This document shows, in pieces, positions 12,153 to 18,413 of a stretch of DNA of 64,000 nt. Every line of letters begins with the position of its first letter. Position 1 is the first letter of the stretch. The stretch covers positions 17,472 to 81,471 of IMG/VR virus record IMGVR_UViG_3300017569_000030. One strand, written 5' to 3'. Below the pieces are notes generated by a model. The model did no database searches and had not been told where the DNA came from. It saw only the letters and a list, made by a program, of their open reading frames with translations. The translations under genes were made by a program, and so were the position numbers. The stretch comes from a virus (lineage: Duplodnaviria > Caudoviricetes).

Positions 12153-14087
12153 ATGATTGATACGAAAATAAGACAATAGGGCTTAAAAGCCGATTATGCA
12201 CCTGATACAACACACAAGGATGTTATTTATCTAACTACAGATACAGGTGAAATTTATTTTAATGGAGAAACTTTAGGAATATAGATAGAAGGAGAAGGTG
12301 CAGAAAACCAAATCTTAGTTTACAATGGCGGAACAAGAAAAGGTAAATGGGTTGATGCAGGAGATATATTGGAATTAAAAGATTATGTTTCTTATGGTGT
12401 TCTAGTAGATGAGTCGATCTCTGATCCTCATCTAACTAGAACTGGAAACTTGTCTTTACACAGATCTTTACCAGTTCAATCACAATATAAGGGTTGTGTT
12501 GTTAAAGACAATAAAGTAGTATATTACTTAGATGAAGATGACTGGACATATAAAGAAAATGGTAATCCTAGCAAGGGATATACAGAACAACTTTCAGTTT
12601 TAGATGGAACTGATGGGGATGTCTGTGTTGAAATACCTTAGTTTTATGGATATTGTTATGACTTAGGTGATGGCAAATGGGATGTTCGTATTTCTTTAAC
12701 TAAAGTTTCAGATGATTGGTTTGAAATACCCCACATGTATTGGGGCGCATACAAAGGATGTATTGATAGAACCAGTACTTATAAAGCTAGAAGTGTACAT
12801 AATACTACTGCTAACTTTAGAGGTGGATCAAATAGTCCTACTTATGATTATTTACTAGAGACTAATCCATTCTTCTCTCATTTAGGTAAAGCATCGACTG
12901 GTTTTACTCGCCCTCAATGGCGAACTTATTGTATTAATAATGGTGCACAACCTACCAATTATGAATATTATAAATGGGTAGTATATTGGGCATTTGTAAT
13001 TGAATATGCTAACTTTAATTCTCAAGAAGCGGTAAATTCAGAATTAACTGATGAAGGCTATCATCAAGGTGGATTAGGTTATGGTTTAAGTGATTCAAAT
13101 TCTGTTAGTAGTACAGGAACTTATGCAACAATACCTTGTGGATATACTAACAGTTTAGGAAATCACTCTGGAGAGGTTAAAATTGTTACTGATTCTTGTG
13201 ATCTGAAATATGGTGTAGATTCTAGTATTTATAAATGGTATAGTTATAATGGATGTGTTTAGCAATAGACAACTGTTGAGACAACATGGGATGGAGGTAG
13301 TTGTGAGAGTAAAAATCTTCATATAACATACTTAAATAATACTACTAATATGTAGTTATATAGTGACAACAATGATGCAGGAACTAGATATTACAGTTTT
13401 ACAAGTGTTCCTACTGATTGTACTATTACTTTTAGAATAGATGGAAGCACATTAGCAGATCAAACAGAATATAATAAAGAAGAAAATGGTGATACTTATA
13501 ATGTAACATATCTAGTGGAATGGGGTGTAAATAATTCTAGAAAAACAATACATTTTGAAGGATATAAAGGAGATACGGATATATACTTCTATTATCCAGG
13601 TAATTATTCAACAAATGATCCTGTAGTTGCTACTACATTAGCAGCTGTTACTGGAGCATGCCCTAGATATAGAGGAATTGAAAGTCCCTTTGCTGAAATC
13701 TGGGAATTTCTAGATGGTTGTATAGTAACTTATGATACAGATTCAAAGCAAAATAAATTATATACAAGTCTAGAATGTCCATATTCTGATACTATTAGTG
13801 ATTCTGATTATAGAGGAGATGTTTCTAATAGCGGCGGCTTTGGTAAAAAGCTTTTAATGGGTTCTAGGGCTGATTTTTTCCCTGTTACTACTGGTGGAAG
13901 TTCTAGTACTTATACTTGTGATAGTTTATGGGTAAATACTAGTGCCGAATTGCGCCTCTTGGTCTCTGGTGGGCGCGCGGTCTACGGTTCTTCTTGCGGT
14001 CTCGGCTGCTTGGATGCGTACCGCGGGTTGTCGTACTCGCATGCCGTTATCGGCGGTCGGCTCTTTTTCCTTTCGGTCGGGGCTTGA
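12153..14087 (+). CDS. DGR target protein 1 (644 aa), putative receptor-binding protein with C-terminal C-type-lectin-like domain
   Basis: ATG 12153 to TGA 14085-14087 through TAGs. EYANFNSQEA and PRYRGIESPFAEIWEFLDG motifs; the 3' end is VR1. Confidence 0.88.
13955..14085 (+). repeat. DGR variable repeat VR1
   Basis: 131 nt, ungapped against 14139-14269; 25 mismatches, 24 of them at TR adenines. Confidence 0.95.
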
Positions 14088-14138
14088 CTACCTTGAGACA
14101 TACACTTAAATATTTCTAGTTAATTTTAAAAATAAAAA

Positions 14139-14269
14139 CCTCTTGAGCTCTGGTGGGAACGCGAACAACAGTTCTTCTTGCAGTCTCAGCTACTTGAATG
14201 CGAACAACAGGTTGTCGAACTCGAATGCCAATATCAGCAGTCAGCTCTTTTTCCTTTCAGTCAGGGCTT
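14139..14269 (+). ncRNA. DGR template repeat TR1
   Basis: AAC/AAT-rich non-coding copy of VR1, upstream of the RT. Confidence 0.95.
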
Positions 14270-14389
14270 TTATGGTTATTATGAAATTCTTTTTATTAAT
14301 GAAATTAACTATGCCACTAGGCAAAAAATTACGTATCTAACGGCACATTAGTAAACTATATTGAAAGTGTGCTACAACAAAAGAATATC

Positions 14390-15505
14390 ATGAAAAGAAT
14401 TGATAATTTATATGATAAAATTTGTGATTTATCAAATATTATAGATGCCGCAGCAAATGCTGCCGAAAACAAAAGTAAATAGTATGGAGTACGAATGTTT
14501 CTGAAAAACTCCTTTTAGAATTGTATTAATTTATCTGAGTTATTAAAAAAGGAGCAATATAAAACTTCTCCATATAAATTATTTACAATATATGAACCAA
14601 AAGAACGTCTATTATATAAATTGCCATTTTATCCAGATAGAATTGTTCATCACGCAATAATAAATATACTTGAACCAATTTGGATGAAATTGTTTACACG
14701 AGATACTTATTCCTGTGTTAAGGGAAGAGGTATTCACGGATTAGTAAAAAAGCTAACCAAAGATTTACGATATAATGTTGATGAGACAAAGTATTGTTTA
14801 AAATTAGACATTAAAAAGTTTTATCCAAGTATTGATCACGATATATTAAAACAGATAATACGTAGGAAGATCAAAGATAAAAAAGTATTAAAATTATTAG
14901 ATGAAATTATTGATTCTGCTGAAGGTGTACCAATTGGTAACTATTTATCGTAGTATTTTGCCAATCTATATTTAACTTATTTTGATCATATAATCAAAGA
15001 ATAGAAAAGAGTAAAATATTATTATAGATATGCAGATGATATAGTAATATTATCCTCTAATAAACAAGAATTACATGAGTTACTGACTTTTATTAAAGAA
15101 TATCTTTGGAATGAATTGAAATTAAAAGTTAAAGAAAACTATTAGATTTTTCCAGTTGATAAAAGAGGGATTGATTATGTGGGATATGTATTTTATCATA
15201 CTCATGTTTTATTAAGGAAAAGAATTAAACAAAATATCTTAAAAGCTGCGAGAAATAAGAATATCAAATCTCTTAAAACATATAAAGGTTGGCTTAAATA
15301 TTGTGATTCTAAACATTTAATGCAAAAAATATATAAATTATCTGGATTAAATTTAGATAATTGGAATGGCAGACAAGTTAATAGAATTGAATTAGATGGA
15401 GGAATAATTAAACATATACATAAAATGAAAAATTATTATAATATAGATTTCGTTAAGAATAACAAATCATATTATACAAAAGTTAAGAAATTATGGTTAA
15501 AATAA
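14390..15505 (+). CDS. DGR reverse transcriptase (371 aa, five in-frame TAG)
   Basis: MKRIDNLY start; PFYPDRIVHHA, LKLDIKKFYPSI, GVPIGNYLSQ (Q encoded by TAG 14951-14953), YRYADD (YADD at 15029-15040), GIDYVGY. Confidence 0.95.
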
Positions 15506-17271
15506 GACAAAAAGGTTTAAAGGCTGATTATAAACCAACTTCTACACATAAAGATGTAATTTATATTACAACTGACACTAATGAAATTCTATTAAATAAT
15601 TAGCCTTATATTTTAGATATTGATGATCCTACTGAAATATTATCAAATTAGCATTTAGTTTTAGCTAACACTGGAAAAGGAGTTACAAAAGGTAAATGGG
15701 AGAATATTTCAGAAATTGATCCAAAGCTATAGTAGCAATTATTAGATGAATACGCTTATGGTGTTGAATGGAATTTTGAAACATCTTCTGACCCGCATTT
15801 AACTAGAGTAGGTAATCTTACAATGCATAAGACACTTCCTATTTAGTCTAAATTAAAAGGATGTGTTGCACAAGCAGATCAAATTATGTATTGGCTAAAT
15901 GAAGAAGATTGGAGATTCAAGAAAGCTCCCACGACTCTTGCTGATCAAACTCTTTCAGTAGCCGATGGAGTTTATACTATTGTTAATGATGTTTTCTCCA
16001 CACTTCAATATGAAAACCAGTATATAAAAGTTAATGATATAGCTTGTAAAGTTACAGCCATAGATACAACAACTTCAACTGCAACTCTTTCTCCAGAAGA
16101 AGATATTGAAGCAGGTACTTATGATGTAGAACTTGGTGCTGTTCTTAACGGATATGATGGGACAGTACGAGTATATATCCCTGCCTTCTATATTAAATCA
16201 GTATCTGAAGATACTGTTAGACAGGTATGGTTATCAACAGTTAAAATAGATGATACTTGGACATACTAGCCTTCAATTCTAGTTGATGCATATAGATGTA
16301 CAGTACTTAATACCGTTCCTACAGACTTTGGTTATCTCTCTACACTTCCAGTAAATAGTGCTATTTCTGTAGTGAATGTGAAAGATTACTGCCGTGGAGG
16401 CAATAATCGAAGTACATATGACACTTACCTTACAGACGATCCAAATAGAACTGATTTAGGCAAACCTCGTACTAATATAGGTAGATCTTCTATGAGGACT
16501 TATGCACAGAATGTAGGGAACTATATGATGTCTTATGATGAGTATAAGAATATATTTTACTGGTTATATGTAGTTGAATATGCAAACTTTAATAGCCAAG
16601 AGGCGTATAATGCAGTTCTAACAGATGATGGATATAAACAAGGTGGATTAGGAAATGGAGTAACAACCTGGGGTTATACATAGTGGCAGTATTATAACAA
16701 TGCATGTCCTCTTACTCCTTGTGGATATGGTAACAAACTTGGAAATGGCACAGGTGTTATTGGTTTAGTAACACCAGAATTTATAAGTGGAACAAGTACA
16801 GTTGCTACTCATACCTTTTCAATGCCTCGTTGGAGAGGATTTGATAATCCATTCGGAGATATTTGGACAAATCTAGATGGCATTATAGTTGACAATGATG
16901 TAGATAATCACGCAAATAATATGTGCTATGTATATACTTGCTCTGATCATACTAAGTGTGCAGATACTATTACTTCTGATTATATTAAAACAGGTGAACA
17001 ACTATATTCATGTGGATATATTAAAACATTTGATTTAGGAGATGCTGCACATATTATTCCTAATGCTGTAGGTGGCAATACTACATAGTATATTTGTGAT
17101 TATAATTGGGTAAGTAATAAGAATACTACTTTGAAGACGGTGATTGTGGGCGGCGGCGCGTATAGCGGTGCTATTGCTGGTCTCGGCGACTTCAATTCGG
17201 TTAATGCGGTCTCGGCTGCTTGGGCGATTGTTGGCTTTCGGTCGGTCTCTTCCTTTATGTCTGTTGTCTAA
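15493..17271 (+). CDS. DGR target protein 2 (592 aa), paralogue of target 1
   Basis: N terminus KIRQKGLKADYKPTSTHKDVIYITTDT matches KIRQQGLKADYAPDTTHKDVIYLTTDT of target 1; EYANFNSQEA, PRWRGFDNPFGDIWTNLDG; ends in VR2; TAA 17269-17271. Confidence 0.88.
17140..17269 (+). repeat. DGR variable repeat VR2
   Basis: 130 nt, ungapped against 17493-17622; 15 mismatches, all at TR adenines. Confidence 0.95.
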
Positions 17272-17382
17272 TGGATGGTGTAAAAAGGATAGTGTAAAAA
17301 GAGTAAAATAATATTTAAGGAAAATAAAATAGTATAAATAATATAGGAAAATAGGTGTTTTCCAATAAAACCGAAGAAAGCG

Positions 17383-17434
17383 GATAGGAGTACCCAATCT
17401 CCTATCTACGCCCTTCGTAGGAATATATCTACGA
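17383..17434 (+). other. Two hairpins upstream of TR2 (GATAGGAG/CTCCTATC 17383-17406; TCGTAG/CTACGA 17415-17434)
   Basis: Perfect inverted repeats read directly; function inferred (DGR RNA 5' structure or DNA cruciform after VR2). Confidence 0.5.
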
Positions 17435-17492
17435 CATAAGACAGCTGGAGTGATAAAAAAGTTGTTTTATTGTTGCACAAAACACAATCAAA

Positions 17493-17622
17493 GTGATTGT
17501 AGGCAGCAACGCGAATAACAGTGCTAATGCTGGTCTCAGCAACTTCAATTCGAATAATGCAGTCTCGGCTGCTTAGGCGATTGTTGGCTTTCGGTCAGTC
17601 TCTTCCTTTATGTCTGTTGTCT
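17493..17622 (+). ncRNA. DGR template repeat TR2
   Basis: Non-coding adenine-bearing copy of VR2, followed by the same spacer motif as TR1. Confidence 0.93.
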
Positions 17623-17789
17623 TTTTGAAAAATGTGTTTTATATTTTTAAATTTTTGTAAGATATATTTCCTTGCCACTTGGCAAAAGATGACATAAAGA
17701 CCTCAATTTTGAGGATGAATCTGTGTTAGTAACGTAAGTGAATACTCGGTATTACACTCTTTTCAGTAAAAAATAATTTAAATAGATAT

Positions 17790-18413
17790 ATGAAGAGGAT
17801 AAACAATTTATATTCTCAAATATACAAAACTAAAAATATTTTCCTAGCTGATAAATGTGCTAGAAAAGCTAAGAGAAATAGTTATGGAGTAAAAGATATA
17901 ACTTTTAAATATGAAATTCCAATTAATGGCTCTGCAACAGGTGAAATTCCAAATGATGTAACAGCATCAGTTCCAAGATGGAGAGGTTTTGATAATTTCT
18001 TTGGGGATTTAGAGACTAAATTTAATTATTTATGGGCAACTAATAAAACAGAAGATGGCAAAACTCGTATTACTGATATTTAGGGTAATTATTATACAGT
18101 AGATTCTGGTTATGGTCCTGTTAATTCTTTTTATTTAGGTAAAACAGCAGAAATTATTCCTAAAGCATGTGAAGATGAGGTAAGCAGTAATACTTATACT
18201 TGTTTATGTGTAAATTTTTCGGACGGCGATCTTAGCATTTATTCTAATATTGAAGCTTCAGTATTTCTCTTTCCAACATCTTCCCATTACCTCGGTATAG
18301 TCTTTTATTAGAATAAATATGAGGCTTGTACTCGTAATGAATATGCAATCGGAGAACATATTTATGATACTTGTCCAGTTTTTACTTCTTATATTGAGTA
18401 CGTAGAGCCATAA
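17790..18413 (+). pseudogene. Chimeric ORF (207 aa): about 35 aa DGR-RT N terminus fused to a lectin-type target C-terminal fragment
   Basis: MKRINNLYSQIYKTKNIFLADKCARKAKRNSYGVK aligns with the RT start MKRIDNLYDKICDLSNIIDAAANAAENKSKQYGVR; then SVPRWRGFDNFFGDL matches target 2. No RT catalytic motifs. Confidence 0.75.

Follow-up and report, generated by a model that had tools for sequence, protein, structure and literature searches.

Here we examine a diversity-generating retroelement (DGR) in a 64,000-nucleotide stretch (hereafter the window; positions 17,472 to 81,471 of IMG/VR record IMGVR_UViG_3300017569_000030), and a regularity in its repeats by which template adenines that are followed by G stand as G in the variable repeats. 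The window comes from an AT-rich (~30% GC) fragment of a crAss-like gut phage in which TAG is a sense codon, and its fragmented open reading frames (ORFs) merge into long genes when TAG is read as glutamine. Under this reading, the locus is a tandem DGR that lacks the accessory protein Avd, with all features on the plus strand. The first cassette consists of a tail-fibre-like target gene encoding 644 residues (12153–14087), whose C-terminus carries the first variable repeat (VR1, 13955–14085), followed by the first template repeat (TR1, 14139–14269) and a reverse transcriptase (RT) gene encoding 371 residues, with five in-frame TAG codons (14390–15505; RVT_1, E = 2e-20). In the second, a target gene encoding 592 residues (15493–17271), with VR2 at its C-terminus (17140–17269), is followed by TR2 (17493–17622) and by a remnant RT fused in frame to a target-like domain (17790–18413). 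Both VRs end 2 nucleotides upstream of the stop codons of their ORFs, and TR1 is placed 120 nucleotides upstream of the RT gene.

The RT contains the motifs IGNYLSQ, of the [ILV]GxxxSQ type found in DGRs, and YADD. It is 50–56% identical to the RTs of crAss-like phage DGRs, and tblastn also matches it to the Brt protein of phage BPP-1 (E = 1e-38). Two of its TAG codons, those for residues 188 and 252, occupy positions at which homologs have an invariant glutamine, one being the glutamine of IGNYLSQ, which directly supports the reading of TAG as glutamine; amber codons have also been reported within the RT gene of Zeta crAss-like phages (PMC12386605). No tRNA gene was detected by ARAGORN in the window. 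No match to Avd (PF05635) was found in the 81-kb record, and the gaps between VR, TR and RT are too small to hold such a gene; a missing Avd is typical of lineage 3 DGRs (PMC5758913). The same compact order of target, VR, TR and RT, with no avd and with a tail-fibre gene whose C-terminus carries the VR, has been described for lineage 3 DGRs (Wu et al. 2018, PMC5758913), for crAssphage LMMB (PMC7290462) and for Zeta crAss-like phages (PMC12386605), whose RTs, at 50–56% identity, fall into one clade with that of the window. Pfam gave no match in either target protein, and no third VR that would pair with TR1 was found elsewhere in the record.

In ungapped alignments of the window's repeats, 24 of the 25 mismatches between TR1 and VR1 fall at TR adenines, as do all 15 mismatches between TR2 and VR2. 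TR1 has 30 adenines, ten of them before G, and TR2 has 26, seven of them before G, so that AG sites make up 30% of the window's TR adenines. Every one of these 17 adenines is G in the VR, while the other 39 appear there as A (17), G (11), C (3) or T (8), a difference in G with a Fisher exact p of 4.4e-7 (17/17 vs 11/39). Likewise, adenine is retained at none of the 17 AG sites, compared with 17 of the 39 others. The first-pass annotation of this DNA, which was made from the sequence alone, had put the adenine changes to G at 28 of 39, a figure that the alignments bear out. It had also stated that all 17 AG dinucleotides read GG, and here a small correction is needed: all 17 adenines are G, but VR1 has GT rather than GG opposite 14146–14147. 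The TR1 of three related contigs (L171–L173) is identical to that of the window except at 14147, where they carry A and the window carries G. The codon is thus AAC in those contigs, and so it was in the window when the template was last copied; the G at 14147 is a recent point change in the TR. This explains the sole non-adenine mismatch between TR1 and VR1. It also means that 14146 is not a true AG site, leaving a cleaner count of 16 of 16.

Read in frame, four of the AG changes are synonymous, just as had been annotated: TCA>TCG at 14259 and 17597, GTA>GTG at 17501, and GCA>GCG at 17561 (VR positions 14075, 17244, 17148 and 17208, respectively). Elsewhere the conversion alters the protein. 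The TR1 codons AGC AGT CAG CTC, which spell Ser-Ser-Gln-Leu, correspond to GGC GGT CGG CTC (Gly-Gly-Arg-Leu) in VR1, again as first described, and an in-frame TAG in TR2 is TGG in VR2. All four synonymous sites fall in the 5′ or 3′ flank of their repeat, beyond the span of the other adenine changes; each of the six AG changes that the window has within the span alters the encoded residue.

To place these counts in a wider context, TR/VR pairs were collected from three sets of loci: six other crAss-like phage DGRs, 80 IMG/VR loci, and 80 diverse bacterial and archaeal loci together with reference phages. Close IMG/VR relatives of the window were recovered neither by a single-protein RT search nor by exact TR/VR patterns, and a search with an RT alignment was needed. 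Pairs were found by a diagonal scan in which TR adenines are wildcards, and which is blind to what those adenines become; blastn self-comparison was dropped as a detector, having missed four of six known pairs. In the six crAss-like DGRs, whose RTs show the identity given above, the VR has G opposite 45 of the 48 AG adenines. Among the IMG/VR relatives (123 distinct TR/VR pairs) the count is 314 of 366. In the control DGRs, by contrast, which comprise 59 pairs from 49 of the loci L087–L170, AG adenines are kept as A at 71% of sites and become G at 16%. These Avd-dependent bacterial and archaeal systems resemble the window in their adenine-specific TR/VR differences and AAY-rich templates, and differ from it in this outcome and in how often their templates use the dinucleotide (see below).

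A tree of 132 RTs shows where the boundary lies. The window belongs to an Avd-less clade of 79 leaves (support 0.92) that holds all of the crAss-like and IMG/VR loci plus one metagenome-assembled genome of Prevotella, and whose members stem from very different sample types, both human gut and environmental. Inside the clade, with the window excluded, AG adenines become G at 360 of 425 sites and are kept as A at 9%, with a per-locus median fraction of G of 0.88. In the 53 loci outside it, the corresponding figures are 27 of 131, 67% and a median of 0 (p = 5e-42 for G at AG sites inside vs outside). The AG sites that do change inside the clade yield 360 G, 24 T and 3 C, and the 9% of AG adenines kept as A compare with 38% of the clade's other adenines. 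The near-deterministic conversion first proposed from this one locus is thus upheld, and is at the same time confined: it is a property of one RT clade, and other DGRs keep the A. A same leaning was nevertheless seen in three Avd-less DGRs outside the clade, namely ANMV-1 (L181; 7 of 8), vir525 (L179; 4 of 4) and Perkons (L178; 2 of 3), and not in the Avd-bearing phage Saumur (0 of 3). ANMV-1 and vir525 are archaeal viruses and Perkons is a Psychrobacillus phage; on the midpoint-rooted tree, their RTs fall outside the clade.

The base on the other side of the adenine also matters. Among the IMG/VR pairs, CAG adenines become G at 284 of 299 sites (95%), TAG at 18 of 27 (67%), GAG at 9 of 24 (38%) and AAG at 3 of 16 (19%). 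The effective context of conversion is YAG, which is narrower than the AG originally proposed.

Because VRs encode protein, the simplest alternative is that selection alone produces the pattern. On this account, the RT would behave at AG sites as that of BPP-1 does, copying them faithfully for the most part and now and then yielding G, and only those VRs that carry glycine, arginine and tryptophan at scaffold positions would fold. It is true that an AG adenine usually opens an AGY codon that becomes GGY at an apparently conserved glycine, and that outside the clade AG sites mostly remain A. However, the annotation had argued that protein selection does not explain synonymous sites, and the wider data agree: across the related pairs, 55 adenines precede G in a third position with fourfold degeneracy, and 48 of them read G in the VR. 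Moreover, at the 21% of G seen in other DGRs, a product with G at all of the 6–10 AG sites of a TR would arise about once in 10^5 products or less often. Under selection alone, A-to-G mutations in the TR itself would also be strongly favored, yet the AG spelling is conserved and is in fact commoner inside the clade, where it accounts for 13.7% of TR adenines as opposed to 7.2% outside.

Independent alleles speak to the same question. Three distinct VR1 alleles of this phage's lineage, found in separate metagenomes (L171–L173) with one essentially identical TR, have G at all 27 AG sites (nine shared sites in each) and vary among themselves at AAY sites; different VR1 alleles from one TR1 indicate recent activity of the DGR. 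Four alleles of one Carjivirus TR have G at 33 of 35 AG sites. The LMMB allele keeps A at two CAG sites, so that A at these positions is viable, if rare, which also weighs against selection alone. Taken together, we regard an origin by selection alone as improbable.

A second alternative is that at least the flanking AG sites lie outside the tract replaced by complementary DNA (cDNA), and that they are fixed TR/VR differences, persisting uncopied and comparable to those between the initiation of mutagenic homing sequence and its template counterpart (IMH and IMH*) in BPP-1. Eight of the window's 17 AG sites are 3′ of the last ordinary adenine change and three are 5′ of the first, as this explanation would have it. 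In an IMG/VR subclade (L007–L086, e.g., L014 and L015), the last three differences, CAG>CGG, CAC>CGC and CTAT>CTTT, are invariable, and at one of them the VR carries T irrespective of a G or an A in the TR. These differences look like fixed differences of the IMH/IMH* type rather than products of mutagenesis. Nevertheless, six of the window's AG sites have ordinary adenine changes to their left and right and read G all the same, and over all pairs this holds for 148 of the 162 AG sites in such an internal position. Adenine is kept at just 2.5% of these sites, compared with 34% of other internal adenines. Of the 17 fourfold-degenerate sites enclosed by other adenine changes, 14 are G and none is A. 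Flanks that are never transferred should also gather differences of every type, and the window's flanks differ at adenines only. Fixed differences thus seem as unlikely a general explanation as selection alone.

The near-deterministic change of A to G before G has, then, been supported by every comparative test that was run, whether on relatives, synonymous sites, internal sites or alleles. It is a direct observation that the TR/VR statistics are as given, that they are limited to one RT clade, and that they persist at synonymous sites as well as in independent alleles. The RT copies the TR RNA from 3′ to 5′ and, at 5′-AG-3′, has just paired C with G when it reaches the A. We propose that the RT of this clade inserts dC opposite an A immediately after copying a G, an estimated 85–95% of the time and most often where a pyrimidine lies 5′ of the A. 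Insertion of dC opposite A would place a G in the VR. Adenines in other contexts, mainly those of AAY codons, would be randomized in the ordinary way, with about one third staying A. On the sequence comparisons above, we consider it likely that such near-obligate insertion of C opposite A after a copied G, strongest in YAG, is specific to the clade and that the nucleotide choice of the RT itself is its cause.

A precedent exists in BPP-1. Two high-throughput studies from 2025–26 found that the errors of the BPP-1 enzyme depend on which base it has just copied: a template G immediately 3′ of an A strongly biases insertion toward C, i.e., A to G (bioRxiv 10.1101/2025.03.24.644984), and a G in that position also lowers the error rate. 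Misincorporation of G in NAG is 0.08% (PMC12875486). The clade resembles BPP-1 in that misinsertion after a copied G is almost only of C. It differs in that most BPP-1 AG adenines stay A, whereas the clade keeps A at 2.5–9% of AG sites, and in that the 5′ neighbor, which has no effect in BPP-1, matters strongly in the clade, as the contrast between CAG and AAG illustrates. Most simply, the contextual tendency seen in BPP-1 would have become nearly obligatory in this clade, with a dependence on the 5′ neighbor added to it. The control DGRs match the published behavior of BPP-1 at AG sites; the BPP-1 template repeat itself (L087, 2717–2850) contains no AG dinucleotide.

Two further alternatives are RNA editing and context-specific repair. 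Editing of adenosine to inosine in the TR RNA by an adenosine deaminase acting in YAG, with inosine read as G, would yield a clean, site-specific conversion of A to G, and enzymes of the ADAR type do prefer a 3′ G. Bacterial TadA, on the other hand, acts in the context UACG and not YAG; no deaminase match (PF00383) was found in the 81-kb record, which is only ~49% complete; and the pattern goes with the phylogeny of the RT in phages whose sample types are very different. We consider editing very improbable. Alternatively, a faithful cDNA would place T opposite a G resident in the VR, and context-specific repair of G:T to G:C would restore the G, making G sticky at these sites. Very-short-patch repair systems of the G:T-to-G:C type exist. 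But other adenine sites show no such stickiness, as they switch between G and A among alleles, and the repair would need to operate in hosts of very different kinds while tracking the RT clade. We give repair an equally slight chance. RNA editing, G:T repair and untransferred flanks are all less consistent with the data than an RT that chooses its nucleotide by context.

Several considerations weigh against this RT-based explanation. The loci are kin and their AG sites are often homologous, so that the counts given above are phylogenetically non-independent. The cause is deduced from end products that had already passed selection, and the prevalence of AGY-to-GGY changes at apparently conserved (scaffold) glycines means that selection must have some share in the pattern. 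The window's own four synonymous sites, being in the flanks, were possibly untransferred at some homing events, and the fixed 3′-end differences of the sister subclade, including the site that is T regardless of the TR base, imply that some flanking AG sites may never be transferred. Finally, G at the preceding position lowers the mutation rate of the BPP-1 enzyme, a property that the RTs of the clade must have changed.

If a YAG adenine is read as G, it becomes a silent spelling of G: AGY then stands for glycine, CAG for arginine and the in-frame TAG of TR2 for tryptophan. Consistent with this, near-identical TRs that have A or G before a G are paired with VRs that have G in both cases, which makes the two spellings equivalent. 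TRs would be free to drift between spellings that give the same VR, and AT pressure would be expected to fill the TRs of AT-rich genomes with the A form. The share of AG adenines does rise as the GC content of the locus falls (Spearman −0.35, p = 0.0014, uncorrected for phylogeny), which is no more than suggestive of an accumulation of AG sites in TRs through AT drift. The earlier proposal that the TR stores required glycine and arginine codons as AGY and CAG, and reserves AAY codons for randomization, describes the pattern correctly; the word "stores" may imply design where there is neutral drift.

We also considered whether spelling G as A weakens the RNA structure of the TR, and found this unsupported. 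Changing AG to GG shifts the minimum free energy of TR1 from −29.3 to −34.1 kcal/mol and that of TR2 from −31.4 to −30.0 kcal/mol, less than when as many adenines are changed to G at random (−41 and −37 kcal/mol, respectively).

Another possibility is that the masked Gs have a function in homing. At their 3′ ends, TR and VR are distinguished by AG adenines only, and no separate GC-rich IMH could be delimited. A cDNA in which YAG has become YGG matches the flanks of the VR perfectly, and the TR DNA does not; perhaps this gives an Avd-less DGR its direction, in that the VR would always be the target of the cDNA and the TR never, with no need of a separate IMH/IMH* pair. We view this idea as doubtful, although, if true, it would amount to a programmed recoding step inside a mutagenic polymerase.

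The clade's RTs have residues of their own that may be related to the behavior at AG sites. In the catalytic motifs, the clade has YADD where others have YMDD, leucine in place of threonine before the SQ of GxxxSQ, and tyrosine in place of phenylalanine in motif A. Six residues, namely Thr103, Ser108, Tyr145 (the tyrosine for phenylalanine), Leu186 (the leucine of GxxxSQ), Ala215 (the alanine of YADD) and Asn250 (P0001 numbering), reach a conservation of at least 87% within the clade and are rare in other RTs. As correlates of clade membership, these residues are candidates for a causal role rather than demonstrated determinants.

The direction of the bias has been published for BPP-1; what appears to be new is its nearly deterministic character, together with the masking of codons. 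A full-text literature search on the AG dinucleotide in DGRs returned the BPP-1 study as its sole match. The papers on lineage 3 and crAss-like DGRs (PMC5758913, PMC7290462, PMC12386605) take each TR adenine as an A-to-N site, no mention of context-determined adenine outcomes was found in them, and the diversity of LMMB, for example, was stated as 4^28 (PMC7290462). If the RT causes the pattern, then a large and abundant DGR branch, that of crAss-like and many further gut and environmental phages, has two classes of template adenine, one randomized and one converted. Estimates of diversity as 4 to the power of the number of TR adenines would then be too high (by ~4^10 for TR1), and residues predicted from the TR to be hypervariable would instead be fixed glycines, arginines and tryptophans. 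The clade would also represent a natural enzyme variant in which the weak contextual effect of BPP-1 is nearly absolute, which bears on the adenine selectivity of DGR enzymes, and the AG rule on the design of DGR-based tools for directed evolution.

Other features of the locus concern the relationship between the two cassettes. The two target genes are paralogous (repeat families D3–D5), and repeat family D10 ties the RT gene at 14390 to the remnant at 17790. The remnant retains ~35 N-terminal codons of an RT, and the domain fused to it resembles the C-terminal part of the targets (it has the motif PRWRGFDN), with no recognizable VR. As the remnant is not a functional RT, the second cassette has no RT of its own, and TR2 is presumably served by the RT at 14390. 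A palindrome-like motif, TGCCACT(A/T)GGCA, followed by a run of A, lies ~40–50 nucleotides downstream of each TR (14312–14323 and 17673–17684); perhaps both cassettes use it in cis to prime synthesis or to bind the RT.

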